Of a DNA stretch of 64,000 nt, positions 15,294 to 32,761 are shown in pieces; positions within the stretch are counted from its first letter, which is position 1, and each line of letters starts with the position of its first letter. The notes under the pieces are model-generated. The model was not told the origin of the DNA. It made no database searches and was given only the letters and a program-made list of their open reading frames with translations. The position numbers were made by a program, and so were the translations under genes. Source of the stretch: Terriglobia bacterium (GTDB lineage: Bacteria; Acidobacteriota; Terriglobia; UBA7540; JAPUME01); assembly GCA_965237895.1 (NCBI GenBank), contig CBDEGR010000001.1, positions 25,253 to 89,252 of the forward strand, in the 5' to 3' direction.

Positions 15294-15343
15294 ATTGACC
15301 CACTACCCACTCCTCGACTGAATCCTTACCGCTTGGGGAATTA

Positions 15344-17300: not shown

Positions 17301-17304
17301 CAAG

Positions 17305-17585
17305 CGCCATTCTCCCGTTCCAGTTCCTTCAGACGCCTCACCTGATCCACTCGTAAGCTCCCGTACTCCTTCCGCCATCGGTAATAGGTCTGCTCCGTAA
17401 TTCCCAACTTCCGACAGACCCCTCCCGTTGTCTGGCCCTTGGCCAGCTCCACTTCCGCCTCTCGTAGATGTCGGATGATCTGTTCGGCTGCATATCGCTT
17501 CTTCGGCATTCCTCCCCCCTTCCATGTCCAGTCCGTACCCTAACCTCTAACTTATCAACTGGACCGATTTAAGGGGGGCAGGTCA
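17305..17585 (-). mobile_element. IS3-family remnant (left end + first ~68 codons of orfA)
   Basis: Terminus TGACCTGCCCCCC (reverse complement, ending at 17585). orfA MPKKRYAAEQIIRHLREAEVELAKGQTTGGVCRKLGITEQTYYRWRKEYGSLRVDQVRRLKELEREN stops abruptly. Confidence 0.7.
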
Positions 17586-17621
17586 GCAGGTTTCTCCGGT
17601 GGATCTGATTTGCCGGACCTG

Positions 17622-18080
17622 TCAGACACCTTGAGTCGAAAGTCTGGTTGTCAAAATCAGTTCGTCTAGCGCCAAAAAAACCAAGGAGAGCGGAGGCCAG
17701 AAAGTTTTTTCACCATCGTCAACAAGAACGGTGTATTTCAAGGCGTGCTTCTTGTGTTGATCCGATAATCCATCCACTACCGCAGTAGTGTCATCAGTTA
17801 CAGACACGCCTTTGTTTTTTAATTCAATCAACAAAGCCAATAAGTTGTGCCTATAATCAAACTTTCTGAGTTGGACTTCGGGGAAACCACGTTTGAGCAA
17901 GGCTGCTTTAAGAAATAGTTCGGCTGCATGAGATGCAAGGAAGTAGAGAGGAATTGCTGTTAATTTGGTTGGGCGGCCATCGCTATCCAATTCAACATGG
18001 CTCCGCAACTGTTCAGCGCTTGCACGAAAATCGGCACCGTTCAGATAATATGCGACTGCAAGTGGTACGTTGTCTTTCAT
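17622..18080 (-). CDS. Orphan HEPN-domain protein
   Basis: SHAAELFLKAALLKRGFPEVQLRKFDYRHNLLALLIEL follows the classical HEPN helix pattern (E..LKA.L ... R-x5-H.L..L). Start chosen at ATG 18080 (MKDNVPL). Confidence 0.5.
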   Translation of the reverse strand: MKDNVPLAVAYYLNGADFRASAEQLRSHVELDSDGRPTKLTAIPLYFLASHAAELFLKAALLKRGFPEVQLRKFDYRHNLLALLIELKNKGVSVTDDTTAVVDGLSDQHKKHALKYTVLVDDGEKTFWPPLSLVFLALDELILTTRLSTQGV

Positions 18081-18172
18081 ACTTTGTAGCTTCCTCCCGA
18101 GCTGCAGCCAAGCCGTGGGCCTGCTTAGCCAGACTTGTCGACCTCGAGATCCTTGGCCCTTGCTGGACAATA

Positions 18173-18469
18173 TCAGTCTTCGACATCATTCATTCCCCGA
18201 GCGGCCCTTCGCGCCATCGCGAGCGTCACCAATCCCTCATCTGGCCTCTCTTGGCTTGCCTTCAGCCGCCCTGCGCGGCTTTCCGGTTTGCGATGTTTGC
18301 CCATGCTTTGCCTCCGCTCATCCCTGAGCTTCCCGTTAAAGCTCTCCACATAGCCATTCTCCCAAGGACTGCCAGGCTCGATGTATAGTGTCCTGACACC
18401 CACGGCCTTAAGCCAGTCCCAGATCGCCTGAGCTGTGAACTTCGGTGAAAAATTCCGTCGTTTTACCAT
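18173..18469 (-). pseudogene. IS3-family orfB (integrase-core) C-terminal remnant
   Basis: FTAQAIWDWLKAVGVRTLYIEPGSPWENGYVESFNGKLRDE parallels FTARLVRDWLERVGVKTLFIEPASPWENGYVESFNGKFRDE of the intact orfB at 31913..32761. The remainder is degenerate. Confidence 0.7.
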
Positions 18470-18759: not shown

Positions 18760-20040
18760 CTACCGGACGATGAGGACCTGACCGGCATAGATCCGGCTGT
18801 TGCGCAACCTGTTCAGCCTCATCAGCTCGCGGATCCCGAGGCCGAACATCCCGGCGATGCGCGACAGCGTGTCGCCCCATTGGACGCGATACCCGCCATC
18901 GCTACTGACTTGGCCCGAGCCGGGACCAACGACCAGCGTCTCACCCGCGAAGATCCGGTCCGAGGGAAGCCGGTTGAACGCCATTAACGCTCTGACGGAA
19001 GTTCCATACCGCCAGGCGATCTCCGACAGCGTGTCGCCCGGACGGACACGATACCTCCGCCCGTCACCGCCTTCTTTGGGGGCTCTCGCCATGATGCTCA
19101 CGGCTGGGTAGCTGAAATCCAGGGGCTGGTCAAGCGTCAGCGGACCGAAGTAGCGCTCGTAGTCCTGGTAGACGTGGACGGCGGCCAGGAACTCCGGGTA
19201 AAAGTTCTTCGAGGCGTACTTGAATGCGCGCCCCCTGTACTTGCGGATGATCTCCGCCATGTCGGATCCGTGCAGGCTGCGCGCGCGCAGCATTCCCGCC
19301 CGTCCGTGGTTATAAGCGGTGATCGCAAGGGGCCAGGATTGGAGTTGCTCATAGTTCCCTCGGAGTAGCTTCGCCGCCGCGCGCGTGGCGATCGCCGGGT
19401 TCAGACGGTCGTCGCGGCCGCGAGCCACACGCATGTACCGACGGCCGGTCGCTCGGGTGAACTGCCAGATGCCGGCGGCGCCCGCATGGGAATACGCTGC
19501 GTTCTCATAGGACGACTCGACCAGGGGCAGCAGCGCCAGGATCGGCGGCACTCCTTCGCTCTCGAGCAGCTCTTCGAAATAGGGAAGGTACCGGCCCGAG
19601 CGAATGACCCCGGCGCGGAAACGCTCCTTGATACCGCGTTGCATGTGGATCCGGTTCATCAGAATGGCGATATTGCTCGCCGTCATGCGCACGCCTTCGG
19701 CTTCGATCCGGTTGTAAAAGACCCGCGCCTGCGCGCTGAGTCCTTCGGGTGTGTCAATACCCCGCCGCACCTCGTTCAGCAGGCGGCGCACACGCGCGAC
19801 GCCCGACCGGCGCGATTTCTCGTCGACGACATCGTAGATCAGATTGACCCGCTCGGTGTCGTGGATGATGAGGTCGTCCTCGCCATAGATCGTGAAGACC
19901 TTTTCCCAGGACGCGATCCGATCTTCGAGCCCGGTTTCCGGAAAACCCGGAATTTCGGCCAGGGCGGACACTGGAGAAATCGCCTTAACGACGAGGAGTG
20001 GAAGCAGCCAACCGAAGATTTTCATTTGGGAATTATACAC
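18760..20040 (-). CDS. mltD: Membrane-bound lytic murein transglycosylase D-like (SLT domain + 2 LysM)
   Basis: Signal peptide. LVESSYENAAYSHAGAAGIWQF (SLT catalytic Glu motif). Two LysM repeats (YRVRPGDTLSEIAWRYGTSVRALMAFNRL; YRVQWGDTLSRIAGMFGLGIRELMRLNRL). Confidence 0.85.
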   Translation of the reverse strand: MYNSQMKIFGWLLPLLVVKAISPVSALAEIPGFPETGLEDRIASWEKVFTIYGEDDLIIHDTERVNLIYDVVDEKSRRSGVARVRRLLNEVRRGIDTPEGLSAQARVFYNRIEAEGVRMTASNIAILMNRIHMQRGIKERFRAGVIRSGRYLPYFEELLESEGVPPILALLPLVESSYENAAYSHAGAAGIWQFTRATGRRYMRVARGRDDRLNPAIATRAAAKLLRGNYEQLQSWPLAITAYNHGRAGMLRARSLHGSDMAEIIRKYRGRAFKYASKNFYPEFLAAVHVYQDYERYFGPLTLDQPLDFSYPAVSIMARAPKEGGDGRRYRVRPGDTLSEIAWRYGTSVRALMAFNRLPSDRIFAGETLVVGPGSGQVSSDGGYRVQWGDTLSRIAGMFGLGIRELMRLNRLRNSRIYAGQVLIVR

Positions 20041-20343: not shown

Positions 20344-22617
20344 TCATGATTTGAACTGATACGGAAAGGCTGCGATCCGCACCCACTGGCCGGAGCGCAA
20401 CCGCACCGCCCTGAAAGGTTCCAGCCGATTCGCATCCACCTCGGTGCCCCGGGTGGAATTCAGGTCCTCGACCCAGATCGCTCCGTCAACGAGTCGCAAT
20501 CGCAGGTGACGCCGCGATACTTGAGGATGGCGAATCTCCACGTGACACAACTCCCTGGCCCTGCCGATCACCAGACCCTCAGCGGACGTGAACAGGTCTC
20601 GACGCAGGGGGATGGGTTCCGAGCCATCCAGAGGGATCAGTGTTCCCACCGCCCTGGCGGGGACAACGGCCGCCGGGGGCGGCACAGGTCCAGCCCGATT
20701 TTCTTCGCCCAAGGCCCCGGGAGCGTCTTCATGGGCGCGAGCGGCTCCCCTCATCGAGTCCCTACCCGGACGAAACTTGACCAGCGCGAACCCCGCAACC
20801 AGTAGCAGAATCGCTGCCACGATCCATAGAATCATTTGCTGAGCCGGGCGGAGCGACTCGCCGGGTTCCGGCAAGGGAAGATCCGGCTTGCCCGGGTCTG
20901 GCGCAGGCTTTGGCTCCGGGGCAGGTTCTTCTTGCGGTTGCGGTGCCGGTACCGGCTTCGGCGAGGGCGTAGGTCTTGGGGGCGGTTCAGGCTCCGGTTG
21001 CGGTGCGGGCTCGGCCTCCGGTTCCGGCTCAGGCTCAATCGGATTCCAGTAGCCCGGTATGCCGATGGCGTCCATGGCCGTGTGCGTGGCCGCCCACTCC
21101 GGCGAGGATTCGCCGTAGTGGATTTCGGCCACAGCCGCGAACGCGTATCGCGCCGCCTCGAAACCGGCGTTCGGCGTGAGCAGATCGGAGGCCGCGCGCC
21201 CGAATATTCTCAGCGCCTTCGCCAACCCCACGCCCTGCACCTCGGGCCCGGAACGCAGGCGAGGGTGCTGGCCGCCCATGGCCAACAGGTAATAGCCCTG
21301 GTTCATGATCGACGAATTGATGTGAACGCCGCCGTTGTCAACGCTGACGTGTCGGTAGTCGTCGAAATGGTCGGGATACGGCTTGCCGGTTTGGGGATCC
21401 ATGAGGCTTGGAGGATCTCTCATATCTCGCATCACACCGCCGGGATGGCGGAGTTGCCAGACCCGCGCCGGGACATCCGCCGGCAGTACCGTGCCGCCAT
21501 TCTCCAGCCAAGCTCGGAACGTCACGCCAACCGCGTCGGCAATGGCCTCGTTCAGGGCGCCCGGTTGCGACTTGTAGATGAGGCCGCTGCCCCAGTGGAT
21601 GATTGCGTGGCCGATCTCGTGACCGATGATCTCGCTATAGTCCAACGCGGCGCTCGGCAATAAGAACGCGTTCAAGCCGCCGTGCCAGAAGGCATTGAAG
21701 GCATCGCCGATACACTGAGGCGGGGGAGCCGTGGGATGGACGCGCACACCGATAAAGCCGTGCAACGTGCCGCCGCGGTCGTCGAGGCTGTCCATGTCTA
21801 GGGTAGCCTCGAGAAACCGATAGACCTCGCCGAACCTTTCGAACAGCCGCTCGACCTCGGCGTTGCCGCGGTGAGACACCTCACTTCGGATATGTCTCTT
21901 CATGGCGCGTCGCGCCAGTCGTAGGGAACGCTGCCAACCGACCACGCGGCGAACCTTGCGATCGCGGCAAGCGGCGCCGAAGTCGTACACGCGGCGGTCG
22001 AGTCCCGGGTGCGTCAGCGAAAAGCGCTGCAAGACGGTTCCTTTGTGCGCATCGACGTACACCCGTTCGAAGCTGACTTGCTCCTCTTCCGGAAACCAAC
22101 CTTCCAGTTCGTAGCTGAGCTTGAGTTCGTCCCCGTCCGGCCAGAACACGAGCCGGCCGGTGGGTGGATGGGCATCGGATGCGTGAGCGGCGGCCAGGAC
22201 ATCATCGAGTCCGAGAGTCGGATCAGCAGAAGGCGGATCGGGAAATGGCGTGTGGTGGCCAAGCAGATGAACGGGCTTGCGGTCGCCGTTCAGGAGCAAT
22301 CGGGATTCCCTGTGAACCACGGGCAGCTCCGCGAGGGTCTGGGCAAGGTTGTAGATGGCGTGGCCGCGCAGGCGGCGCGGCTCGCCTGCGACCTTGAGCC
22401 GGTCGCTGGCGGCCAAGCCAAGCCGCCGGTGCAGTGCTCCGGCCGCCCAACTCGAAACGGCGGCATCATCCGTCAGCCGGGACGCTCCGCGTGAGAAATC
22501 CAGCCGAGTGCCTGGGCGGTGCCGGCCGTCTTCTTGAGCCTGTGCTTCTCCAAAAGCAGCCAAGCACAAGAGCACCGCAGCCAGGCAGCGGCCACGCAGT
22601 TTACTGCGGGGATTCAT
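20344..22617 (-). CDS. Bitopic protein: secreted thermolysin-family (M4) metalloprotease with its own FTP/PepSY pro-region, Pro-rich linker, TM helix, cytoplasmic FHA domain
   Basis: Signal peptide CLAAVLLCLAAFGEAQA. HEIGH followed exactly 20 residues later by the Glu of GALNEAIAD (thermolysin spacing). GGVHINSSIMNQGYYLL. PEPEPEAEPAPQPEP linker. TM MILWIVAAILLLVAGFALV. FHA GLVIGRARELCHVEIRHPQVSRRHLRLRLVDGAIWVEDLNSTRGTEV. Start chosen at ATG 22617. Confidence 0.85.
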   Translation of the reverse strand: MNPRSKLRGRCLAAVLLCLAAFGEAQAQEDGRHRPGTRLDFSRGASRLTDDAAVSSWAAGALHRRLGLAASDRLKVAGEPRRLRGHAIYNLAQTLAELPVVHRESRLLLNGDRKPVHLLGHHTPFPDPPSADPTLGLDDVLAAAHASDAHPPTGRLVFWPDGDELKLSYELEGWFPEEEQVSFERVYVDAHKGTVLQRFSLTHPGLDRRVYDFGAACRDRKVRRVVGWQRSLRLARRAMKRHIRSEVSHRGNAEVERLFERFGEVYRFLEATLDMDSLDDRGGTLHGFIGVRVHPTAPPPQCIGDAFNAFWHGGLNAFLLPSAALDYSEIIGHEIGHAIIHWGSGLIYKSQPGALNEAIADAVGVTFRAWLENGGTVLPADVPARVWQLRHPGGVMRDMRDPPSLMDPQTGKPYPDHFDDYRHVSVDNGGVHINSSIMNQGYYLLAMGGQHPRLRSGPEVQGVGLAKALRIFGRAASDLLTPNAGFEAARYAFAAVAEIHYGESSPEWAATHTAMDAIGIPGYWNPIEPEPEPEAEPAPQPEPEPPPRPTPSPKPVPAPQPQEEPAPEPKPAPDPGKPDLPLPEPGESLRPAQQMILWIVAAILLLVAGFALVKFRPGRDSMRGAARAHEDAPGALGEENRAGPVPPPAAVVPARAVGTLIPLDGSEPIPLRRDLFTSAEGLVIGRARELCHVEIRHPQVSRRHLRLRLVDGAIWVEDLNSTRGTEVDANRLEPFRAVRLRSGQWVRIAAFPYQFKS

Positions 22618-24082
22618 CAGATTCGCCCGCCGGCGCTGCCCGTGAACCGACGACAACGGGCACACGGAGTAGTATTTCCCCTGTCTCGGCATCGAATATC
22701 GTCCGTTCCTCGCCTCGATCGATCAGGACTACGCCTTCCCAGGCCAGACGATAGCCGCCGCCTGCCACCCGAAAGATGACCAAGGTCCCCTCGTCCAACG
22801 CTTCGATCCGTTTGCCGGTCGAGTCTGCGGCAAGGGCGATGGTGGCGGGGTAGTCATGGGCGGGGCGGGGATCGATGTCGATTGCCGGGGCGGGGTGGCC
22901 CTGGATCTTGACGATGCGCCGGCCCTCCGCAATCACCGCCACCTCGGCAGCGAACACCCGGATGTCTTTATGTTTCTGCCTCAATCGGCTGATGGTCTTG
23001 CCGACCATTCGGCGTCCCTTACCAGCCGGTTCCAGGGTGTCCTGGTTGCCGATCCTGCCCGCCTTGCGCAACGCATCGGCGACGGTCTCCGGCACGGTGC
23101 TTCCGGGTTCAACCTCGCGGTCAATTTCGATTTCCACGCGCTCGATGGGCACGGGAATGCCCTCGGGCGGAGTCTCTTCGGCGCTTCGCGACTCTTCCGT
23201 CGACCGCGCCCGGTCATTCGGGTCGGATTCCTCCGTCTCCTGGCGTGGCGCCGCCGCGGGGAGAGGCTGCGCCCTCAGGTTCAGCAACAAGACTGAGGCC
23301 AGCACGGCGAGCAGGAGTGCGCCGATTACCCACCAACGCCGGTTACGCCTGGGAGCGGCGACTTCCGCCAAGATGGCCGTGGTGTTGTCGTGGCGCTGCA
23401 GCCGCTCGAGTTTGTCGGCAAAGCGCGCTTCCAGCTCGCGCCCAGGATTGGATGACTCAAAGACCGCGAGGATTTCGTCGGGCGAGAAGATCTCCCAGAA
23501 GCCGTCGCTGCACACGGCGAACCGCCTGCCTTCCACTAGGTCCCAGCGCTCGACTTGCGCCTCAGGCGCGTCTCGGCCGCCGATCTGCGTGAAGAGCTTC
23601 TTCTGATCCGGATGGGTGGCGAGCGCCTCCTCGGCGATGACGCCGCGCAGCACGTTCAGTTGGGCAATGGAGTGGTCCAGCGTTCGCCGGGCGAGCCCCG
23701 TGCCGGAGAACTGCATGACACGGCTGTCGCCGGCATGGATGGAGGTGACTTCCGCGCCGCGCCCCAGCAGCGCCACCAGTGTAGAGCGGGGATCCAGTCC
23801 CGGCTCGTCCCCCGCCCTGTTCACGGCGGCGTGGCATTCGCGCACCAGATCGGTCAGGAAGGCTTCAGCTTCCAGGTCCTCGCTTCGCGAGTTCCAGCAG
23901 CGCTCGGCGGTCTCGATGACTGTCTGCGCCGCGAGAGCGCCTCCGCGATGTCCGCCGAGGCCATCGGCCACCACCAGGAGAAAGGCGTCTCCGCCAGGCG
24001 ACCGAAGGACCTTCATTCGATCCTGGTTCTCGCACCGGTGCCCGATGTGCGTGAATCCGTGCGCCGTCATCGTAGAGATCAT
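22601..24082 (-). CDS. Bitopic protein: cytoplasmic PP2C phosphatase, TM helix, extracytoplasmic FTP/PepSY-like (M4 pro-peptide-like) module
   Basis: PP2C motifs LLVVADGLGGHRGG, AVCSDGFW, HDNTTAIL. TM WWVIGALLLAVLASVLLL. The ectodomain VADALRKAGRIGNQDTLEPAGKGRRMVGKTISRLRQKHKDIRVFAAEVAVIAEGRRIVKIQGH ... RLAWEGVVLIDRGEERTIFDAETGEILL parallels the pro-region of the downstream M4 protease. Start ATG 24082. Its stop overlaps the M4 start by 17 nt. Confidence 0.8.
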   Translation of the reverse strand: MISTMTAHGFTHIGHRCENQDRMKVLRSPGGDAFLLVVADGLGGHRGGALAAQTVIETAERCWNSRSEDLEAEAFLTDLVRECHAAVNRAGDEPGLDPRSTLVALLGRGAEVTSIHAGDSRVMQFSGTGLARRTLDHSIAQLNVLRGVIAEEALATHPDQKKLFTQIGGRDAPEAQVERWDLVEGRRFAVCSDGFWEIFSPDEILAVFESSNPGRELEARFADKLERLQRHDNTTAILAEVAAPRRNRRWWVIGALLLAVLASVLLLNLRAQPLPAAAPRQETEESDPNDRARSTEESRSAEETPPEGIPVPIERVEIEIDREVEPGSTVPETVADALRKAGRIGNQDTLEPAGKGRRMVGKTISRLRQKHKDIRVFAAEVAVIAEGRRIVKIQGHPAPAIDIDPRPAHDYPATIALAADSTGKRIEALDEGTLVIFRVAGGGYRLAWEGVVLIDRGEERTIFDAETGEILLRVPVVVGSRAAPAGESDESPQ

Positions 24083-24167
24083 CGGTTCTCGCTCGTGGTC
24101 GTCCAAATGTGGCGAAGATCGACCCGCCGGAGCATCCTGCACTGAACCCACGTCTCCGGACCACGGG

Positions 24168-24196
24168 TTGAGCCGCCCTCGAACGTCTGCTATTAT
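24168..24196 (+). promoter_or_regulatory. Candidate sigma70-type promoter for the kinase gene
   Basis: TTGAGC - 17 nt - TATTAT in the 240-bp divergent intergenic region between the PP2C and kinase genes. Confidence 0.3.
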
Positions 24197-24321
24197 ACTC
24201 CTCACGCCTTGCGGTGTAATATCGCTACTCGGTGGAGCGTCCGATTGCCGTGATTCGCGGCGAACCCGCCCAAGTTTTGCTCCAGCGCGGATAAGCTCAA
24301 TCGCAGAAAGAGAGGGATGCC

Positions 24322-26151
24322 TTGCAGACGGAAGGCCGGTCGCGGAATGCGTTGCCGCCCGGCACCGTGCTGAACGGTGTTTACCGGGTCGAGGTGGAGG
24401 TGGGCCAGGGGGGCTTCGGCATCGTGTACCGGGCACAGCACAACGAGTTGGGCTATCGGGTCGCAATCAAGGAGTACCTGCCGGCGGAGTTGGCCGTACG
24501 CGAGGGCCGCTCCGTCCACCCCCGCAGCGTGGACTGCCGCGAACAATACCAAGAGGGCCTGCGCCGCTTCCTGGAGGAGGCGAAACAACTCATCCAGTTC
24601 CGAGCTCATCCAAGCATCGTCTCCTGCCGGGACTTCTTCCGGGCCAACGGCACGGCGTACCTGGTGATGGAGTACGAAGAGGGCCTGCCGCTGTCCGAGT
24701 TGCTGCAGGTACGGGAGGAGGAGGGAAGGCCCTTCGGCGAGGCGGATTTGCGGAAGGTGATGGTGCCGCTGCTGGAGGGTTTGGCGCGCGTGCATGCAGC
24801 GGGGGTGCTGCACCGGGACGTCAAGCCGGCGAACATCCTGGTGCGGCGGGAGGACGAGCGTCCGGTGCTGATCGACTTCGGCGCGGCGAAGCAGAACTTT
24901 GCGGAGCACAGCAAGTCGCTGGCGCCGGTTACGGCAGGGTACGCGGCCATCGAGCAGGTGGGGGAGGGCAAGCTGGGCCCGTGGACGGACCTGTACGCGG
25001 CCGGGGCGGTGATGTGGCGCATGGTGGCGGGAGGGAACCGGCCGTTCGAGCCGCCGAATCCGGTGAAGGTGGAGAGTCGGACCCATGCGGTGTTGCGGGA
25101 AGAGGCGGACCCGCTGCCGTCGGCGCGGGAGTTGGGTAGGGGGCGGTTTTCGGAGCGAGTGCTGGGAGCGATCGACCAGTGTCTGGAGTTGCGGGAAGCG
25201 GACCGGGTGCAGGACTGTGGGGAGTTACTGGGTCTGCTGGATGCGAAGAGGAAACGCGACGAGGGGAGGCAGAAGTTCACCGCCGCGGACGGGAGCGTAT
25301 GGGAAGGCCCCGTTGTGGACGGCCAGCGGCAAGGTCACTGGGTCGCTCGCCGGGCGGACGGGACCGTAGGAGAAGGACCCTTTGTGGACGGTCAGCGACA
25401 CGGCGACTGGGTCTGGCGCTTTGCGGACGGGAGCGTGTACGACCTCTCCTATATGACCGGAAAGCGGGTCTCCTCCGTCCGGCGGGGGGTGGCGCCGGCG
25501 GCAGCGGAGCCGCGGCCTGATAAGGCAGAAGCCAAACCCTCGCGTGCCGCATGGAAGTTTTCGAGGCGTTGGAAGTGGATTGCGGCGGGGTTCGCGATGC
25601 TAGCAATTAGCTCGAACCAGTTTCTTCAGAATCTGAACCGCGGCGAGGGTAGGCAAAAGTTCACCACCGCAGACGGGAGCGTATGGGAAGGACCCTTTGT
25701 GGACGGCAAAAAGCATGGCAACTGGGTCGTACGCTTGGCGGACGGGACCGTAGCGGAAGGTCCCTTTGTGGACGACAAGCGGCACGGCGACTGGGTCGAG
25801 CGCTTTGCGGACGGGACCGTAGGGAAAGGTCCCTATGTGGACGACAAGCGGCACGGCGACTGGGTTGTTCCCTTGGCGGACGGGTCCGTACAGGAAGGTC
25901 CCTATGTGGACGACAAGATGCACGGCCGCTGGGTCATTCGCTTGGCGGACGGGTCCGTAGCGGAAGGTCCCTTTGTGGACGACAAGATGCACGGCCGCTG
26001 GGTCATTCGCTTGGCGGACGGGACCGTACAGGAAGGTCCCTATGTGGACGGCAAGCAGCACGGCAACTGGGTCTGGCGCAAGGCGGACGGGACCGTGTAC
26101 GACGTCTCCTATAGGAACGGCGAGCAGGTCTCCTTCGTCCGGCGGAAGTAA
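24322..26151 (+). CDS. Hanks-type Ser/Thr protein kinase with two MORN-repeat blocks separated by a TM helix
   Basis: GQGGFGIVY, VAIK (Lys50), HRDVKPANIL (Asp166), DFG, APVTAGYAAIE. MORN block 1 (res 315-388), TM WKWIAAGFAMLAISS, MORN block 2 (res 442-609, six 23-aa repeats GP(F/Y)VDxK.HG.WV.R.ADG(T/S)V.E). TTG start as in the ORF track. Confidence 0.9.
   Translation: MQTEGRSRNALPPGTVLNGVYRVEVEVGQGGFGIVYRAQHNELGYRVAIKEYLPAELAVREGRSVHPRSVDCREQYQEGLRRFLEEAKQLIQFRAHPSIVSCRDFFRANGTAYLVMEYEEGLPLSELLQVREEEGRPFGEADLRKVMVPLLEGLARVHAAGVLHRDVKPANILVRREDERPVLIDFGAAKQNFAEHSKSLAPVTAGYAAIEQVGEGKLGPWTDLYAAGAVMWRMVAGGNRPFEPPNPVKVESRTHAVLREEADPLPSARELGRGRFSERVLGAIDQCLELREADRVQDCGELLGLLDAKRKRDEGRQKFTAADGSVWEGPVVDGQRQGHWVARRADGTVGEGPFVDGQRHGDWVWRFADGSVYDLSYMTGKRVSSVRRGVAPAAAEPRPDKAEAKPSRAAWKFSRRWKWIAAGFAMLAISSNQFLQNLNRGEGRQKFTTADGSVWEGPFVDGKKHGNWVVRLADGTVAEGPFVDDKRHGDWVERFADGTVGKGPYVDDKRHGDWVVPLADGSVQEGPYVDDKMHGRWVIRLADGSVAEGPFVDDKMHGRWVIRLADGTVQEGPYVDGKQHGNWVWRKADGTVYDVSYRNGEQVSFVRRK
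25645..26148 (+). repeat. Coding tandem repeat, 69-bp period (MORN units); a shorter copy of the same block lies at 25264..25485
   Basis: Adjacent units at about 25909-26046 are almost identical at the nucleotide level (GACGACAAGATGCACGGCCGCTGGGTCATTCGCTTGGCGGACGGG.CCGTA..GGAAGGTCCCT.TGTG). Confidence 0.9.
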
Positions 26152-26180
26152 TGGCTTACCTTTGGGCCGGCCCGTGCCGC

Positions 26181-27185
26181 TCAAATGCCGAGAATGGCGA
26201 GCAGCACGCTGGCGATCATGGACTCGCCGCCCGACCCATCGACAAACCGCCCCCGGCCGGCCTTGGCGAGTTCCCGCAGGAACGGTTCCGAGTTGCCGGA
26301 TTGCTCCCACGCCATGACCGCGGAAACATGCTGTCCGTCGGCCGCCGCAAACGCCCGAGCCGTCTGCAGGGCCGCGGCTTCCTTTTCGGGATAGGCTGGA
26401 TTATCCGTCACCGCGATGATGTAGCGGCGCTGGCTGACGGAACGCCAGTTCAGCGCCACGGCCCGGTCCAAGGCCATTGCCAGCGCTTCGGGATTATCGC
26501 GGTTTCTCCCGGCATAGGGATCACGCATATTTGGCCTCAGCGTTTCCACAAAGCGCTCCAGGGGCGCTAGGTTCGACGTCTCTACGATTTCCTGGACGTG
26601 AAGCGGCTGCTGCCAACGCCTGTCACCGAAGGCCACGACGCCGATGCCGGTGGAGGGCGTTAGCCTGTCCAACACCTTGGCCAGGTTCTCGATTTCCCGC
26701 TTCAGCCCTTCGACATGATCCTCCATGCTGGCGGTCACGTCCAGGCAGATCACCAGGTCGAGATCGGGAATCCGCACCTTGGCCAGCGTTTTCGCTAGGT
26801 CGCTGGCTCTTTCCTTGACTTGGTCGAGTTGCCGCTCAGCTTCGTTGAGCCGCCGCTCCGTTTGATTGCGATGGAGTTCCGCCTCGTCGCGCTGGCGTGC
26901 CAGCCTCTCGCCTTCATCGTCAGCCCCCTTGCGTTCCCGTGCCAGCTTCTCGGCTTCGTCACGCTGACGCTCCGCTTGATCTCGCTGGCGCCGGGCCGCG
27001 TCGCGCTGCTGTCTGGTCTCTTCGAGCGTCACCTTGACGTTCTTGATGCGTTCCCTGGAATCCCCGGTGTTGGGGAAGAACGGCAGCACCATCACCGCCA
27101 ACAGGATGAAGGCGCCCATGCCGGATGCGAACAGGTCCAGCGCGGACATGGAGAAGATGTTGATCTCCCGGCTGCGCCGCTTCAA
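26181..27185 (-). CDS. ExbD/TolR-like N-terminal TM anchor + charged coiled coil + von Willebrand A (vWA) domain
   Basis: MKRRSREINIFSMSALDLFASGMGAFILLAVMVL resembles the ExbD/TolR N-terminus, including an Asp at the TM entrance. RQ/RD/AE heptad-rich segment. vWA start DLVICLDVTASM (MIDAS-like DxTxS), GVVAFGD, IIAVTDN. Confidence 0.7.
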   Translation of the reverse strand: MKRRSREINIFSMSALDLFASGMGAFILLAVMVLPFFPNTGDSRERIKNVKVTLEETRQQRDAARRQRDQAERQRDEAEKLARERKGADDEGERLARQRDEAELHRNQTERRLNEAERQLDQVKERASDLAKTLAKVRIPDLDLVICLDVTASMEDHVEGLKREIENLAKVLDRLTPSTGIGVVAFGDRRWQQPLHVQEIVETSNLAPLERFVETLRPNMRDPYAGRNRDNPEALAMALDRAVALNWRSVSQRRYIIAVTDNPAYPEKEAAALQTARAFAAADGQHVSAVMAWEQSGNSEPFLRELAKAGRGRFVDGSGGESMIASVLLAILGI

Positions 27186-28681
27186 CGGCTCCCGTCCTTG
27201 AGAAAGTGCACCACAAGATCAATGTCGCCCAGTGTGAGACGCGACCCGTCCCGGACGACGAGCGCTTCTCCGGGCTTCAACCTGACGCCGTCGAGACTCG
27301 TGCCGTTCAAGCTGTTCATGTCTTCGATGGTCATGGCGTCGCCGTCCACGCGGAGGCGGGCATGCTCGCGGGAAATGCTGTCCACGCCGATGACGTAGTC
27401 CGCATTGGCGGAAGAGCGGCCGATCACCTGGCCGGCTTCCGATCTGGCGAGGGCGTTGCCGTTGACCTTGACGCGCAGTTCCTGCTCGAGCGGCCCCACG
27501 CCGGCCAGAATCACGTCGGAGAAGGTGACGTTGCCGCGCTCCAGGCGGCTACGGGCCGCCGACAGCTCTTGGTCGGATTCACGCAGCCTGCGCTGGCGCG
27601 CGCGAAACTGCCGTCTTACCAGAACTCCGGCCACCAGGAACAGGGCTCCCAGAACGATGCCGATGAACCACTGTCGGCGGCGCAATTCCTCCTGTTCCCG
27701 CTGCCGCTGTGCGAGCTCTTCATCCTTGCGGTGGCTTTCCTCTTGGTGCCGTTCTATTTGCTCTTCCAGGTCTTTCTGCGACTGCGACTGCTCTTTCAGC
27801 GCCTGTTGCTTGCTGGCCAGCTCCTGACTTTGCCTCCGCAGGTGTTCTTCCAGTGCCGCCTTGTTCGCTTCGAGTTCCTGCACCTGCTCCTGATTCTGCT
27901 GTTGGTTCTCGCTCGACGCTGCCTTGAGCTGCTCGAGTTTCTGCTCCAGCGCGGCTTTCTCCTCTTCCACCTGTTGTCTTTCCTGCTCCAGCGCTGCCGT
28001 TCCCTCTTCCAGCTCTTTCCCCGTTTTCTCTGCCTGCAAGAGCTGATCTTGCAGAGAAGGGCAGACTTCGCCGCTGGTCTCAAACTCGACTGCCTGCGCT
28101 TTCAGGAAGGCCACGAGGGCCGACAGGGCGCCGCTGACGCCCAAATTCGCATCGCCGCCGCCCGGGCTGCTCGGCTTGCTCTGGCTGATGGCCAGGAGTT
28201 CATCGCAGTTGTTCATGAGCGGCGCCGCGGCCTCGTCCTCCCCAACGATGGAAGTGAATCGATAGCGGACTTGCTCATCCTTCCCTTTGAAGATGGAGTG
28301 CAGCGTGCCTTTGCGCCGAGTCCCTTCCGGAACCAGGAGGTACACTCGTCGGCCCTCTCCCGATGCTTCCAGAGCAACCGTCACCGGCTCGCCGCCCAGA
28401 CCCGGGACCGAAAGCAGCGCCAGATCGGCGTCCGCTTCGCGGGCCTTCACGGTAGCCACCAACCGGGCGCCCGTGGCCGGATCGTGGACCAGGTACTGGC
28501 CTCCGCGCGAAACCAAGCGATGACTGGTCAACAGCAGTCCGTCTGCCATCAGCACGCTCACGCCCGCCGCCGCTTCCTCGCCGCGCTTTTGCACCACGAG
28601 GCGGAATGCGGTCTCGGCCATGGCGGGCGCCGCCGTCGCCAGAATCGATGCGAGGACCAGGAGCTTTTGGATTCTGTTCAT
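27182..28681 (-). CDS. Bitopic protein: signal peptide, trypsin-like (S1C-fold) module lacking the catalytic Ser motif, long coiled coil, TM helix, cytoplasmic FHA
   Basis: LLLTSHRLV and ADADLALLSVPG match the His and Asp regions of HtrA-like proteases. The GNSGGP position reads EDEAAAPLMNNCDELLAIS. About 130 aa are E/Q/K-rich coiled coil. TM WFIGIVLGALFLVAGVLV. FHA QVIGRSSANADYVIGVDSISREHARLRVDGDAMTIEDMNSLNGTSLDG. Confidence 0.7.
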   Translation of the reverse strand: MNRIQKLLVLASILATAAPAMAETAFRLVVQKRGEEAAAGVSVLMADGLLLTSHRLVSRGGQYLVHDPATGARLVATVKAREADADLALLSVPGLGGEPVTVALEASGEGRRVYLLVPEGTRRKGTLHSIFKGKDEQVRYRFTSIVGEDEAAAPLMNNCDELLAISQSKPSSPGGGDANLGVSGALSALVAFLKAQAVEFETSGEVCPSLQDQLLQAEKTGKELEEGTAALEQERQQVEEEKAALEQKLEQLKAASSENQQQNQEQVQELEANKAALEEHLRRQSQELASKQQALKEQSQSQKDLEEQIERHQEESHRKDEELAQRQREQEELRRRQWFIGIVLGALFLVAGVLVRRQFRARQRRLRESDQELSAARSRLERGNVTFSDVILAGVGPLEQELRVKVNGNALARSEAGQVIGRSSANADYVIGVDSISREHARLRVDGDAMTIEDMNSLNGTSLDGVRLKPGEALVVRDGSRLTLGDIDLVVHFLKDGSR

Positions 28682-28693
28682 TTCAGGTACCGT

Positions 28694-29458
28694 CTAGGGT
28701 TTGATTTCTTGTCCGTCCGGGCGGAACACGATCACGGTGGCATTGTCTTGCGACGGCAGGGCGTGCGCTTCGACGGCTTGCAGGATGGCGCCGACCAGGC
28801 CGGCGGAAGATGACGGGCCATCGGCGATTTCACGCAGCTCTTCGAGTGAGCACGTCTCCACCCCGTCGCTGGCCAATACCACAAGGTCTCCGGGTTGGAG
28901 CGGCAGAGGGTCCGGCGGCGCGTCGACCCGTTCGATGTCTTCTCCCAGCACGGCCTCCAGCAACCGGGATCGCTCGGCGTCTTCGGCGGCTTCCTGGACC
29001 GTGATCTCGCCGGCCGCGGCGCGTCGGTCGAGGACGCCTCCGATGGAGTGATTCTCGTTCAAGCGATGCACCTCGCGGTTGCGCAACAACCACAGCGGGC
29101 TATCGCCTACACTCACCCACTGCAGCGAATTCCCATCCACGGCGGCGGCTACCAGCGTCGTGCCCATGCCGGCCAAGTGCGGCTCCGCCTCGATACGGTC
29201 GAACAGTGCGAGGTTCGCCGCCTGGAGCGCTCGGAGCAAGCGCTCCCTGGAGCCTGGATCGCGGGCTTCGACAAACGCATCGCGGAAGCTCTCGACCACG
29301 GTGGCGCTGGCTGCATCGCCCGCGGCATGCCCGCCGATGCCATCTCCCAGCAGCAGCAGGTGATAACCGTTGGGCCAGGACAGGCAGGCCGCCCGGTCCT
29401 GCTGAGACTCCCGTTGCCCCTGTATCTGCCCCCAGGCGATGTCGGCCGCCACCGTCAC
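28694..29458 (-). CDS. Soluble PP2C-family Ser/Thr phosphatase
   Basis: LLLLGDGIGGHAAGDAAS, MGTTLVAA, VVLASDGV, QDNATVIVF. Confidence 0.9.
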   Translation of the reverse strand: MTVAADIAWGQIQGQRESQQDRAACLSWPNGYHLLLLGDGIGGHAAGDAASATVVESFRDAFVEARDPGSRERLLRALQAANLALFDRIEAEPHLAGMGTTLVAAAVDGNSLQWVSVGDSPLWLLRNREVHRLNENHSIGGVLDRRAAAGEITVQEAAEDAERSRLLEAVLGEDIERVDAPPDPLPLQPGDLVVLASDGVETCSLEELREIADGPSSSAGLVGAILQAVEAHALPSQDNATVIVFRPDGQEIKP

Positions 29459-30147
29459 TCACCCGGTTCTTCCTGGTCCAGCCATGTGAACTCGTCGTCG
29501 CAAAACGCTATGAATCGCAAGGTCGTTTCGCCCAGGGCAATCCGGCTTCCGGGAGGCAAGGGGGTCGTCTCCAGTACGGGATTCTCGTCAAGATACACCA
29601 GATTGACGCCTTGCCCCTGCTGAACGTAGAACCGATTTCCCCTGGGGTCGTAGGTGAGAACGGCGTGGTCGTTCCGAGAAATCTGCTGGTCGCCGAAGTT
29701 CAGGCGCACGCGGCAGGTCTCGCCTCGGCCGATGCCGTTCTGTCCGTTGCCCAAGCGCACAGAGGAACCCTTGCCCGGGCCATCCACCACCACCAGCCAG
29801 CCGACGACCGGATCCGCCATTCCCGGCTCGTCGCCGCCCTCGGCCCCCTTGCCCGGGGCCCGCCGCCGTCCCCCTGCAATCACGGTCCTCGGATCTCTGC
29901 CTTCCTGGGTATCGCCGCGCGCTCCGCCGCCCGCGGAGCGGGTCACCGGTTTCGTCGGCGCCTCTTCCGGGAACAAGGAGCTGCGCTGTGACCGCGACGG
30001 CGGCGCCGTCGGATCATCGCCTGAGGAAGCACTGCCCGGCCCGGCCGCCTTGTCCGATTCACGGTTCGCAAGTCGCGGCGCATCCTCCGGCAGCGGTGTG
30101 GATGGGATATCGACGGGCACGCCGTCCGGGCCCAGTTTCTTCGCCAT
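29455..30147 (-). CDS. FHA-domain protein with ~120-aa disordered Pro/Ser/Thr-rich N-terminus
   Basis: GWLVVVDGPGKGSSVRLGNGQNGIGRGETCRVRLNFGDQQISRNDHAVLTYDPRGNRFYVQQGQGVNLVYLDENPV. Its stop overlaps the PP2C start (ATGA). Confidence 0.85.
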   Translation of the reverse strand: MAKKLGPDGVPVDIPSTPLPEDAPRLANRESDKAAGPGSASSGDDPTAPPSRSQRSSLFPEEAPTKPVTRSAGGGARGDTQEGRDPRTVIAGGRRRAPGKGAEGGDEPGMADPVVGWLVVVDGPGKGSSVRLGNGQNGIGRGETCRVRLNFGDQQISRNDHAVLTYDPRGNRFYVQQGQGVNLVYLDENPVLETTPLPPGSRIALGETTLRFIAFCDDEFTWLDQEEPGE

Positions 30148-30187
30148 GTCAAGCTCCCTTCTTCATTATTATCCACATATTCACCAT

Positions 30188-31009
30188 CTACTGCCTACTA
30201 TTCCTCTCCTCATAGAGGCGATTGATCAAGTTGTCCAGGCAATACTGGCCGGCGCTGTTGAGCGCGGCTTCCTCCTTTCCCTGGGCCATGTGCAGCAGGA
30301 ACACGAGCACCGCCGACATGATCAAGGCGACCAGCGTGGTGCTGAAGGCGATTCCCAGCTTGGTGGTCATTGCGGCGAACCAGGCTTTGACTTCGTTGGA
30401 CGAGTCCAGGTCGGGCATGTCGCCGGCCGCCGACAGCGCCAGGGCGATCCCAACGACCGTGCCGATAAAGCCCAAGGTCGGGATGAGCCAGACCAGATAC
30501 CGCAGCATATTGTACTTGAGCTCGATCTCGTGCTGCATCAGTTCGAGGCTCGAGTTCATCAGACTGTTGGCTTGATCAATGGACTGGCTGATCTGAAACT
30601 GTTGCACGATCCGGACGATCAGGCGCTGCAGCCGGAAATAACGCGCCTGCTTGACCTTCATGACGTTCCGGTAGAAGGGGATGAGGTCCTTGGCCCGGAG
30701 CATGGTGCTTTCGTCTTCCGGAAGAAGGCCCTTGCCGAACTGCTCCGCTTCGCCGGTGGCGCGGTGAAAGCGAACCCAGAGTTCGCCTAGCCCGAAGAAG
30801 CACATAAGCCACATGACGTTCTGAATCGTCAGCGGATAGATGTTGCTGGCGCGGTCGAGGAGCAGGGCCGAAGCCTGGATCTCACCGGAACCCGCCTCCG
30901 GCCAGGGGAGCGCGAAGGTCAGCAACCCGATGACGGCGCACCCGGCGAGCACCGCCGCCAAGGCCACGATGACCCGGTATTGCTGTTCGTCACCTTCCAG
31001 TGGATTCAT
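30188..31009 (-). CDS. MotA/TolQ/ExbB-family proton-channel protein
   Basis: Four predicted TM segments. YLVWLIPTLGFIGTVVGIALAL and LGIAFSTTLVALIMSAVLVFLL match the conserved C-terminal MotA_ExbB helices. Confidence 0.8.
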   Translation of the reverse strand: MNPLEGDEQQYRVIVALAAVLAGCAVIGLLTFALPWPEAGSGEIQASALLLDRASNIYPLTIQNVMWLMCFFGLGELWVRFHRATGEAEQFGKGLLPEDESTMLRAKDLIPFYRNVMKVKQARYFRLQRLIVRIVQQFQISQSIDQANSLMNSSLELMQHEIELKYNMLRYLVWLIPTLGFIGTVVGIALALSAAGDMPDLDSSNEVKAWFAAMTTKLGIAFSTTLVALIMSAVLVFLLHMAQGKEEAALNSAGQYCLDNLINRLYEERNSRQ

Positions 31010-31024
31010 GTAATCTTCCTGCGA

Positions 31025-31375
31025 TCAGGCTTCGACTTCTCCGGTTTCGACATTTCGGCGCGGCTTGACGGAGACTGGCTCGTAGGCCGGGATCGACGCC
31101 TCGTCGGGGAAAGACCTCCCTTTCAGTATGTCGGTCAGGGCAACCTCGCACTTGCCGAACCGGAGCTTTGCGTCCGAGTCCACGTAGCCCTGCTTGTGGG
31201 ACGCCCACTTACCGTTGCGCAGTACGCGAGTCCCCCGGAGAGAGTTCCGGTCCGTTAAGTAGCAGCGTCCACCGCGGGTCAACGTCAGCTCAGCGTGCAT
31301 CCGGCTCACCGAAATGTCGTCGAGCCGGATGTCGGCGTTCCTGCTGCGGCCAATCGTAAGTGTTTGAAATGCCAT
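31025..31375 (-). CDS. Stand-alone FHA-domain protein (116 aa), first gene of the minus-strand operon
   Basis: LTIGRSRNADIRLDDISVSRMHAELTLTRGGRCYLTDRNSLRGTRV. AGGAAG SD for the next gene lies 15 nt downstream. Confidence 0.85.
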   Translation of the reverse strand: MAFQTLTIGRSRNADIRLDDISVSRMHAELTLTRGGRCYLTDRNSLRGTRVLRNGKWASHKQGYVDSDAKLRFGKCEVALTDILKGRSFPDEASIPAYEPVSVKPRRNVETGEVEA

Positions 31376-31589: not shown

Positions 31590-31868
31590 ATGTCCATCAA
31601 GAAGCACAAGCCGGAACAGATCGTAACAGTACTGCGGCAGATAGAAGTGCAGATGGCGAACGGAAAGACGGCCCCGCAAGCCTGTAAAGAGGCGGAAATC
31701 CACACTCAGACCTATTACCGCTGGCGGAAGGAGTACGGCGGTCTAAAGATGGATCAGGCCAAGCGGTTGAAGGTCCTCGAGCAGGAGAACACTCGCTTGA
31801 GGAGGGCGGTTGCAGACCTGACCTTGGACAAGCAGATTCTGCAGGAGGTCACAAGGGGAAACGGCTAA
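31590..31868 (+). CDS. IS3-family transposase OrfA (HTH)
   Basis: MSIKKHKPEQIVTVLRQIEVQMANGKT..THTQTYYRWRKEYGGLKMDQAKRLKVLEQENTRLRRAVADL (leucine zipper). Confidence 0.9.
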   Translation: MSIKKHKPEQIVTVLRQIEVQMANGKTAPQACKEAEIHTQTYYRWRKEYGGLKMDQAKRLKVLEQENTRLRRAVADLTLDKQILQEVTRGNG

Positions 31869-31912
31869 GCCCGGCGCGTCGCCGGCAGTGGGCGGCGCAT
31901 GTCTGTAAGGCG

Positions 31913-32761
31913 TTGGGTGTCTCGGAACGCCGGGCTTGTCGAGTGCTCAGCCAACCCCGGTCCACCCAGCGCCATCGATGCATCGCTGCTCCCGACGAGG
32001 ATGCCCTGACGAGGGCCATCGTCACCCTGGCCGGTCGGTTTGGTCGCTATGGCTATCGTCGGGTCACGGCCTTGCTGCGGCGAGCCGGGTGGAGGGTCAA
32101 CCATAAGAGAGTGGAGCGCATCTGGAGGCGGGAGGGACTGAAAGTGCCGAAGAAACAGCCCCGCAGAGGCTGGCTGTGGTTGAACGATGGGTCGTGCTTT
32201 CGGTTAAGACCGTGCTGGCAGGATCATGTCTGGGCGTACGATTTTGTGGCAGATCGAACCCACGATGGTCGTCCACTGAAGATCTTGACGGTGGTGGATG
32301 AATACACGCGAGAGTGTTTGGCGATCGACGTAGAACGGCGAGCTGATTCGATGAGTGTCTTGGAACGGCTAGCAGCCTTGTTTGTGGAGCGGGGAGTTCC
32401 CGATTACCTTCGCTCGGATAATGGGTCCGAGTTCACCGCTCGGTTGGTACGGGACTGGCTGGAACGGGTAGGGGTGAAAACCCTGTTCATCGAGCCTGCG
32501 AGCCCCTGGGAAAACGGGTATGTGGAATCGTTTAACGGGAAGTTTCGAGACGAGTTTCTGAATGGAGAGATCTTTTACACCTTGCGGGAAGCGAAGGTGT
32601 TGATTGAGGGATGGCGGCGGGAGTATAACAGAGTTCGCCCGCACAGCGCGTTGGGCTACCGGCCGCCAGCCCCGGAAGTGATCCTGCCGTTACCGCCGGG
32701 TTCCGCTCCGCTCCACCCGGCTGCAACGGAGTATGGACTAACATGGAAGGTGGACCAATAA
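31913..32761 (+). CDS. IS3-family transposase OrfB (rve integrase core); probably expressed as an OrfAB frameshift fusion
   Basis: YGYRRVTALLRRAGWRVNHKRVERIWR, VWAYDFV, LRSDNGSEFTA, PWENGYVESFNGKFRDE, RPHSALGYRPP. Confidence 0.9.
   Translation: MGVSERRACRVLSQPRSTQRHRCIAAPDEDALTRAIVTLAGRFGRYGYRRVTALLRRAGWRVNHKRVERIWRREGLKVPKKQPRRGWLWLNDGSCFRLRPCWQDHVWAYDFVADRTHDGRPLKILTVVDEYTRECLAIDVERRADSMSVLERLAALFVERGVPDYLRSDNGSEFTARLVRDWLERVGVKTLFIEPASPWENGYVESFNGKFRDEFLNGEIFYTLREAKVLIEGWRREYNRVRPHSALGYRPPAPEVILPLPPGSAPLHPAATEYGLTWKVDQ

Follow-up and report, generated by a model that had tools for sequence, protein, structure and literature searches.

What could hold together nine consecutive genes that between them encode four FHA domains, two PP2C phosphatases, a Hanks-type Ser/Thr kinase, one vWA (von Willebrand factor A) domain, a MotA/ExbB-family channel protein, and an M4 protease? 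The question is raised by a locus at positions 20344-31375 of a 64,000-nucleotide (nt) stretch of DNA from a Terriglobia bacterium, referred to here as the window, for which a first-pass annotation had proposed a candidate undescribed trans-envelope system. All nine open reading frames (ORFs) that it listed, designated g1 to g9, are present at their positions, and profile searches agree with its domain inventory, the vWA domain being recognized by the fold of its AlphaFold2 (AF2) model. On balance, we favor the view that the locus encodes one conserved, horizontally spread envelope system around a predicted proton-driven motor of the 5:2 type, for which we propose a phospho-gated mechanism.

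Results

g8 and g4 look like the two subunits of a 5:2 motor

The protein encoded by g8 (30188-31009, minus strand; 273 residues) is a TolQ/ExbB-type channel protein with three transmembrane (TM) segments and is the predicted pentameric A subunit. It matched Pfam MotA_ExbB (PF01618) at 3e-10, with 40.2 bits against a cut-off of 22.9, and its family has more than 2400 detectable homologues. A Foldseek comparison of the AF2 model (predicted local distance difference test (pLDDT) score of 86) with the PDB returned A. baumannii TolQ (8vlw) as the best fold, with TM-scores of 0.59/0.71, followed by E. coli TolQ and ExbB, while MotA, PomA, and ZorA fit less well. The residues T184 (in PTxGFxGT) and T224/T225 (in AFxTT) are invariant in 51 sequences and are candidate counterparts of TolQ T145/T178.

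The partner of g8 is, we propose, the protein encoded by g4 (26181-27185, minus strand), the predicted dimeric B subunit, which consists of a putative trans-pore helix (TPH), two long helices, and a vWA domain that is predicted to be periplasmic. The AF2 model (pLDDT 82) contains the TM helix, two helices of about 45 residues each that make up a stalk of about 90 residues, and a confident vWA domain (pLDDT above 90), which Foldseek matched to CMG2/BatB at 6e-9 and which also resembles the integrin beta-I domain. Pfam VWA_2, VWA, and Integrin_beta scored just under their gathering scores (8e-5 to 1e-3). Since D149-x-T-x-S153 and D261 are invariant in 51 sequences, a metal-ion-dependent adhesion site (MIDAS) is indicated. 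Across 78 loci, conservation is far higher in the N-terminal 40 residues of g4 (MKxRxREINIFSMSALDLFASxxGAF…), which are near-invariant, than in the rest of the protein, and Asp17 in this segment was invariant in every alignment of family members (16 of 16, 51 of 51, and 109 of 109). Because the N terminus is basic (MKRRSRE), g4 is predicted to be oriented N-in, as are TolR, ExbD, and MotB, with the vWA domain outside the cytoplasm.

That the vWA protein serves as an ExbD-like partner had been suggested in the first-pass annotation, and the present data bear this out. Of the Pfam families that it had expected, FHA, PP2C, Pkinase, MotA_ExbB, and M4 were recovered and MORN, PepSY, and, in the Ketobacter orthologue of g2, FTP were weak, while ExbD did not match the g4 N terminus even at an E-value of 5. 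An ExbD or TolR gene was likewise absent from all Pfam-annotated neighborhoods examined. The invariance of Asp17 in 109 of 109 sequences, together with the lack of a nearby tolR or exbD gene, strongly supports the assignment of g4 as the missing B subunit, and in some lineages the g4-type gene lies directly downstream of the MotA-like gene. We therefore predict a 5:2 motor with g8 as its A subunit and g4 as its B subunit, an axle that has a periplasmic head of its own.

The 60-residue helix region of g4 was found in 623 clusters (50% identity) among 1.84 billion representatives, always at the N terminus. Among 109 sampled representatives of this TPH family, at least 63 carry a vWA head (Pfam VWA), and other members carry a coiled coil and an unannotated beta-rich head instead. 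In one TPH sub-family (related loci L046, L058, L066, L070, L072, L073, L079, and L080), the gene lies directly downstream of the MotA-like gene (at about position 10800), and the head is a coiled coil followed by a conserved Cys-containing beta-rich domain (…DVDLHVVDPxGxEFYF…GPGNEIWLHP…GRYRVCYKLF…) for which no Pfam match was found. Since this domain takes the place of the vWA domain, the motor axle has interchangeable heads. The paralogous loci L066 and L067, on the same chromosome, encode axle proteins with different head domains. A Ketobacter neighbor with an OmpA domain was considered as a MotB-like TPH protein and was rejected, as it is a lipoprotein without a TPH.

The nine families recur together across at least seven phyla

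The minus-strand genes g9-g8-g7-g6-g5-g4, in this order, form a six-gene operon, on which the plus-strand kinase gene g3 converges, and g2-g1 form a second minus-strand operon. The operon-like packing that had been described holds for the two 4-nt overlaps (g5/g4 at 27182-27185 and g7/g6 at 29455-29458, in ORF coordinates), while the 17-nt overlap of g2 and g1 (22601/22617) is obtained when translation of g1 is taken to begin at residue 26, its second Met, directly ahead of the signal peptide. The g2 start is most likely Met129 (24082) and not the long-ORF start, because homologues extend over no more than some 76% of that ORF, and sites resembling promoters are present at 24168-24220. Such a start would leave g2 and g3 separated by a divergent region of about 240 bp (24083..24321) that has promoter-like sites on each strand. 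The two sigma-70-like sites, which are consensus matches only, are at 24220-24192 (minus strand, 10/12) and 24168-24196 (plus strand, 9/12, with TG), and a terminator-like site lies 3' of g1 at 20236-20220. The sequences of g1 to g5 fit five single-pass membrane proteins with the topologies originally assigned to them.

To examine how far this arrangement extends, one genome per species was scanned with the g8 family, which gave 456 relatives in 185,579 species. The 80 best loci were kept, and the nine window proteins were compared with them by tblastn; the counts given below are for the 63 that have full 10-kb flanks. The 80 loci span at least seven phyla and include Rhodothermales, Bryobacterales, Thermoanaerobaculia, Vicinamibacteraceae, Latescibacterota, and Gemmatimonadota, as well as the gammaproteobacterial Alteromonas, Aliiglaciecola, Idiomarina/Pseudidiomarina, Pseudomonas sp. 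WN033, Cellvibrionaceae, SAR86, and Azotimanducaceae.

A g7-type FHA gene was found directly downstream of g8 in 61 of the 63 loci, a g4-type anchor protein in 60, a g6-type PP2C in 59, and a Hanks kinase within 10 kb in 59. The other families were less widespread: g5 was found in 47 loci, 43 had a g9 homologue immediately before the MotA-like gene, on its upstream side, 34 encoded a second PP2C, and 25, in Gammaproteobacteria and Bryobacterales, encoded the M4-FHA protease (g1). The order MotA-FHA-PP2C-g5-g4 was collinear within 5.5 kb in 37 loci, and in one Idiomarina sp. all nine families stand back to back on one strand. The neighborhood comparison thus places the families together far beyond close relatives, and since they recur across at least seven phyla, and in a single-strand arrangement in Idiomarina, the adjacency of the nine genes is not accidental.

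The closest relatives of different window genes are in Rhodothermales and Bryobacterales metagenome-assembled genomes (MAGs), and the window itself contains no housekeeping marker. Identity between phyla reaches 76-82%, and some genomes carry two copies, which argues for horizontal spread. The two paralogous copies are on the same chromosome in several MAGs (L018/L038, L054/L057, L066/L067, and L081/L084). A further gene, encoding an ABC exporter with two N-terminal FHA domains that is similar to the Mycobacterium Rv1747-type exporter, is located within the cluster or next to it in Alteromonas, Ketobacter, and a Cellvibrionaceae MAG (L001/L002/L032/L051, 1-1734; L088, 2866-5301; L039, ~18836); as it is missing from the window, it is a lineage-specific accessory.

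A kinase, two phosphatases, and four FHA domains provide a Ser/Thr signaling set

The kinase g3 (24322-26151, plus strand) matched Pfam Pkinase at 2e-37, with the GxGxxG motif, Lys50, HRD, and DFG all present. Seven copies of a 69-nt (23-residue) repeat at 25285-26151 lie on either side of its TM helix; the repeat module noted at first reading is therefore real, though Pfam MORN was sub-threshold (E 0.17) and we call the repeats MORN-like. Only the kinase domain is conserved elsewhere (about 50% coverage). The C-terminal part differs by lineage, being Sel1/TPR in Rhodothermales, PEGA-like in Ketobacter, and missing in Idiomarina, which suggests that this region is a lineage-specific sensor.

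Both phosphatases have intact metal-binding motifs. The soluble g6 (28694-29458, minus strand) matched Pfam PP2C_2 at 1.8e-12 and SpoIIE at 5e-9, and the NCBIfam Stp1-type family at 1.4e-35, under the equivalog cut-off, while the phosphatase domain of the membrane protein g2 matched PP2C_2 at 2.4e-15. Two of the FHA proteins are soluble. The first, g9 (31025-31375, minus strand), is a small protein of 116 residues encoded at the head of the six-gene operon (Pfam FHA, 8.7e-13). The second, g7 (29455-30147, minus strand; Pfam FHA, 3e-8), has a disordered linker in which a pair of Thr-containing motifs, …PPT(R/K)P… together with …EPxT(V/R)I…, is conserved among 54 aligned homologues; a motif at the N terminus and a C-terminal (F/L)CxxxF(T/S)W motif are conserved as well. 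The linker Thr motifs are obvious candidate phospho-acceptors and FHA ligands.

One protease, one tethered pro-region, and one pseudoprotease face the periplasm

The type-I membrane protein g1 (ORF 20344-22692, likely 20344..22617, minus strand) comprises a signal peptide, a pro-region, and a periplasmic M4 protease, followed by a Pro-rich linker, a TM helix, and, in the cytoplasm, an FHA domain (Pfam Peptidase_M4_C, 5e-33; FHA, 9e-14). A phmmer comparison with thermolysin gave 1e-25, and the HEIGH, NEAIAD, and GGVHINS motifs aligned and were intact, as expected for an active-looking thermolysin-type (M4) protease. In one Bryobacterales genome (L003/L011, 16620-20690), an insertion sequence (IS; rve transposase) splits the M4-FHA gene into a 317-residue N-terminal and a 490-residue C-terminal piece.

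The type-II membrane protein g2 (ORF 22601-24466, likely 22601..24082, minus strand) joins its PP2C to a periplasmic C-terminal domain that is homologous to the N-terminal pro-region of g1 (27% identity, E 2e-5). Its PepSY match was weak (E 0.11), and the Ketobacter orthologue of g2 gave a weak FTP match. In the related loci g1 and g2 always co-occur, and a reasonable inference from these sequence relationships is that g2 is a phosphatase-tethered pro-peptide controlling the tethered g1 protease.

The third membrane protein of this kind, g5 (27182-28681, minus strand), has a signal peptide, a periplasmic trypsin-fold module, and a coiled coil, and its TM helix leads to an FHA domain in the cytoplasm (Pfam FHA, 8e-16; Trypsin_2, 7e-5, under the cut-off). 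The Ser position is occupied by E, A, F, W, or Y in all aligned homologues and the His is missing in most, so the module, by its residues, is a pseudoprotease. The first reading of a Ser-less trypsin fold was thus correct, and the locus has one active-looking protease, g1, and not two.

The locus lies in a patchwork of mobile DNA

On its right, the cluster is bounded by an intact IS3-family element (31590..32761, plus strand; orfA and orfB, with Pfam rve_3, rve, and HTH_21), and on its left, together with an SLT/LysM gene, by a degenerate inverted IS3 remnant (17309..18469, minus strand). The inverted repeats I1 and I2 of the remnant are 70-77% complementary to 31707-32554, and tblastn identified orfA and orfB fragments with 52-74% identity. 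An ORF of 182 residues inside the remnant (17622-18170, minus strand) had no Pfam match and may be the gene previously annotated as HEPN. The SLT/LysM gene, which encodes a lytic transglycosylase with one SLT and two LysM domains directly downstream of g1 (18760-20040, minus strand), was considered as a conserved partner and rejected, since it was found in no related locus. A Sel1-repeat gene fragment (16876-17400, plus strand), with two 108-nt (36-residue) repeats, apparently contains a frameshift, and the IS3 remnant cuts it. As many Rhodothermales loci have a Sel1-repeat protein or a kinase-Sel1 fusion beside the motor cluster, the fragment may be a decayed accessory component.

Farther to the left, the window at 2194-16287 is a patchwork of mobile and defense genes: an IS4-like transposase (2194-3522), an Eco57I-like type IIG restriction-modification (R-M) gene (6014-9259), an IS6 transposase (10079-10768), an IS1-like gene (12299-13204), an IrrE/M78 peptidase (13214-14293) accompanied by a small partner ORF, and a GmrSD_C nuclease-domain protein (15682-16287). 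To the right, an integrative conjugative element (ICE) occupies 33801-62200 and ends near a tRNA-Arg(CCT) gene (62124-62200). It encodes an integrase (33801-34934), an HNH/wHTH protein (36655-37407), a Dam methylase (37420-38316), an EEP nuclease (42579-43487), ArdC (45790-46860), a VirB4-like protein (48688-51171), VirB9 (CagX), VirB10 (TrbI), and VirB6 (TrbL), a coupling protein (T4CP; 57255-59495), and a VirB11-like ATPase (59033-60451).

Discussion

From the parts, their predicted topologies, and their co-inheritance, we infer the following working mechanism. The membrane kinase g3 would respond to an envelope or periplasmic cue through its lineage-variable extracytoplasmic repeat region and would phosphorylate the conserved Thr motifs in the g7 linker, and probably other components too. 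The FHA domains of the soluble g9 and g7 and of the membrane proteins g5 and g1 could then read the phospho-threonines, and this reading would assemble or activate the motor with its periplasmic partners. Docking of an FHA domain on the motor may be envisaged by analogy with Myxococcus GltG, whose juxtamembrane FHA domain has been modeled on the AglR pentamer (PMC11761067). Proton flow would turn or pull the vWA-headed axle, and the head may use its MIDAS site to grip a ligand in the periplasm or outer membrane. The role of the pseudoprotease g5 might be that of a peptide-binding adaptor, the M4 protease g1, held in check by the g2-tethered paralogue of its pro-region, would cleave its target, and the two PP2Cs would reset the system. 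Candidates for the physiological output are envelope surveillance or remodeling, or regulated periplasmic proteolysis.

Several points weigh against this proposal. Both g1 and g2 are missing from Rhodothermales-type loci, which makes the protease branch accessory and not core, and the neighborhoods yielded no outer-membrane partner or ligand that is conserved. When PDB sequences were searched by hmmsearch with the TPH and MotA-like profiles, no TolR, ExbD, or MotB chain and no ExbB, TolQ, or MotA chain was recovered, and only chance matches (Orco, ATP synthase c) were returned. What ties the two proteins to the known motors is thus their position and fold, the invariant Asp, and genomic logic, the sequences alone being too diverged for a search of the PDB; it was Foldseek with the g8 model that connected g8 to solved motors. 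The TPH itself is of low confidence in the AF2 monomer (pLDDT below 50), and the Pfam scores of the window proteins for vWA and Trypsin_2 are under gathering thresholds. Finally, the motor's stoichiometry, ion use, and rotation are putative, and so are the phospho-sites, the FHA targets, and the protease substrate.

A bolder version of the proposal, which we offer tentatively and regard as doubtful, is that of a mechano-proteolytic signaling machine: a TolQ-like motor gated by phospho-threonine and FHA domains would exert force through its vWA axle on a periplasmic or outer-membrane ligand, and this force would control cleavage by the tethered thermolysin-like protease, itself held by the phosphatase-tethered pro-peptide. 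The A2 domain of von Willebrand factor, which has the vWA fold, is cleaved by ADAMTS13 in a force-dependent manner. If true, this version would make the locus the first 5:2 motor under Hanks-type phosphorylation and a prokaryotic parallel to the force-dependent cleavage of a vWA-fold domain by a metalloprotease.

The motor core has a bioinformatic precedent. A 2025 study ('Origin and Evolution of Bacterial Periplasmic Force Transducers', Mol Biol Evol 2025, msaf138, PMC12204202) predicts 5:2 motors of TolQ-like and TPH-vWA proteins (its Fig. 4c-d), in which vWA proteins tethered by a TM helix co-occur tightly with tolQ homologues without tolR or exbD. These vWA proteins carry a TolR/ExbD-like trans-pore helix with a conserved Asp, which AlphaFold 3 places inside the pentamer. 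The example is from Idiomarina, the proteins are widespread in Proteobacteria, the TPH-vWA genes are predominantly heterologous pairs, and no function is assigned, although a gliding role for vWA transducers is speculated on.

Compared by traits and by occurrence in Idiomarina, as the paper gives no accession, the present family is probably the same as, or overlaps, that TPH-vWA family. The two share the vWA domain on the TPH-bearing protein, the lack of a nearby tolR or exbD gene, and Idiomarina loci. They differ in that a single TPH gene prevails here, in the window and in 79 of 89 loci, with tandem TPH-vWA pairs in only 2 of 89, although the paper's 'predominantly' leaves membership possible. 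The two tandem heterologous pairs are at L032 13994-15880 (Alteromonas lipotrueae) and L013 16616-18890 (a Bryobacterales MAG). They also differ in the kinase, phosphatase, FHA, and protease partners found here, none of which occurs in that paper (0 occurrences).

The original claim of an undescribed system therefore does not wholly stand for the motor pair, and it appears to stand for the coupling: searches of open-access papers and bioRxiv returned nothing on FHA/PP2C/kinase or protease modules coupled to a MotA/ExbB/TolQ-type TPH-vWA motor, and the hard-wiring of such a motor to the kinase/PP2C/FHA set and to a protease, a pro-peptide, and a pseudoprotease appears undescribed. PADLOC and NCBIfam gave no system-level or equivalog match for the cluster, and coiled-coil matches to JetC, LmuB, and SMC in these collections are compositional. 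As to what the first-pass annotation had named as grounds for giving up its proposal (domain calls that fail, genes that are not co-conserved outside close relatives, or a match to a named, characterized system), none of the three was found. Its observation is confirmed, and its interpretation is partly supported.

The locus is best filed with the 5:2 motor class (MotAB, ExbBD, TolQR, and ZorAB). The A-subunit family feature of this class is found in g8 (PF01618, TolQ/ExbB fold), and the feature of the B subunit, an N-terminal TM helix with an invariant acidic residue, encoded together with the A subunit, is found in g4. The resemblance to TolQR-TolA and ExbBD-TonB extends to the TolQ/ExbB fold of g8, to its candidate TM2/TM3 Thr residues, and to a partner whose N-in TM helix carries an essential-type Asp. 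In contrast to those systems, there is here no TolA/TonB-type transducer and no helix with the SHLS motif, where TolR and ExbD have their periplasmic domain g4 has a vWA head borne by a coiled stalk, and the motor is wired to Ser/Thr phospho-signaling. The locus is set apart from Zorya, Agl-Glt, the threonine phosphorylation pathway of the type VI secretion system (T6SS), and TerY-P because each of these fails a defining feature.

Zorya shares with this locus a MotA/ExbB-family pentamer (predicted here), a non-flagellar B subunit, horizontal spread, and a proposed coupling from envelope to cytoplasm. The locus might accordingly be read as a Zorya-type anti-phage or anti-plasmid defense, in which the motor senses that an invader has breached the envelope, signals by Ser/Thr phosphorylation, and acts through a periplasmic protease effector. 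We consider this reading unlikely, and a defense role is weakly supported. The accessory setting described at first holds for the window, where the cluster sits among IS elements, the Eco57I-like R-M gene, GmrSD_C, and the ICE, and the related locus L087 is flanked by transposases and HsdM; it does not hold for Alteromonas (the same non-defense flanks in four species), Ketobacter (metabolic flanks), or a Rhodothermales locus beside gatB and tpiA. The matches of g8 to ZorA are weak and confined to the TM region (PADLOC E 5e-6, 23.8 bits; NCBIfam ZorA_4, 8e-4), and g8 lacks the long cytoplasmic tail of ZorA, as the locus lacks a ZorB peptidoglycan-binding domain and ZorC, ZorD, and ZorE. The kinase resembles the defense kinases mad6 and PD-T4-6 in PADLOC, but its matches and those of the PP2Cs are generic domain matches, with no system-level match, and the cluster encodes no nuclease, NADase, pore-forming, or other cytoplasmic abortive effector. 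The patchy distribution (456 of 185,579 species) and the inter-phylum identity imply horizontal transfer, which, like the paralogous copies in several genomes, is compatible with defense and is no proof of it. Against a defense role, the MotA-like protein had one match in 72,556 plasmids and one weak partial match in 2.9 million viral contigs, and the vWA anchor had no convincing phage match. The sole plasmid relative (NZ_CP125637.1, 163405-164076, 46% identity) is on a 1.33-Mb Rhizobium leguminosarum replicon. If the system were nevertheless a sensor of envelope breach, it would extend the Zorya paradigm.

Quite unlikely, in our judgment, is a motor that powers surface adhesion, gliding, or export in the manner of the Agl-Glt machinery, with the vWA head as, or engaging, an adhesin. 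In Myxococcus, GltG is a single-pass protein whose FHA domain lies beside the TM helix and was modeled to dock on the TolQ-like AglR pentamer, and the adhesin CglB has a vWA domain (PMC11761067); here too, single-pass proteins with an FHA domain beside the TM helix stand alongside a TolQ-like protein, and the gliding role speculated on for vWA transducers in PMC12204202 points the same way. However, GltG is oriented N-in and has a TonB-like C-terminal domain, while g5 and g1 are type-I proteins with a C-terminal FHA domain. The NCBIfam matches to GltG (24 bits against 650) and GltJ (18.5 against 450) are far under their cut-offs, and other Glt families were not found. Nor do the loci share any outer-membrane or periplasmic component of Glt, a secretin, or a beta-barrel, and the hosts include planktonic marine gammaproteobacteria.

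Two further likenesses that had been drawn do not hold. The T6SS PpkA-PppA-Fha1 components, which jointly control assembly of an envelope machine, also bring together a Hanks kinase in the membrane with a PP2C and with an FHA protein, whose linker here is a candidate for phosphorylation, but TagH/VI_FHA (TIGR03354) scored 21 bits against a cut-off of 120, Tss core genes were absent from the window and the related loci, and the machine predicted to be under control here is of the TolQ-like motor type. Genes for vWA, kinase, and PP2C, with or without FHA, are likewise linked in TerY-P, archaeal ArnA/ArnB, and the Deinococcus DRA0331-0334 operon; there, however, the vWA protein resides in the cytoplasm as a phospho-substrate or FHA partner, whereas the g4 vWA domain follows an N-in TM helix and is predicted to be periplasmic, and the window ORFs scanned included no Ter families. 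An accidental joining by IS activity of a TerY-P-like kinase/phosphatase/vWA triad to an unrelated TolQ-like gene, which the flanking IS3 copies and the opposite-strand kinase gene might suggest, can be dismissed, as it is refuted by the co-conservation of the same families in 59 to 61 of 63 loci, mostly without IS elements, by the single co-directional operon of Idiomarina, and by the motor trans-pore helix on the vWA protein itself.

We therefore return to a proposed phospho-gated motor of the 5:2 class. Few functional classes of 5:2 ion-driven motors are known, namely the flagellar stators, Ton, Tol, the gliding and type IX secretion system motors, and Zorya, and each of them opened a field. 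On our reading, one more class is defined by this locus: its axle protein bears the periplasmic effector head itself, and its motor is genetically locked to eukaryote-like Ser/Thr signaling and to a tethered protease/pro-peptide pair. The questions that it opens are the role of TPH-vWA motors, the post-translational switching of such motors, and the targets of the orphan FHA, PP2C, and Hanks-kinase genes of Gram-negative bacteria, and the cultured carriers are Alteromonas, Aliiglaciecola, Pseudidiomarina, and Pseudomonas sp. WN033.

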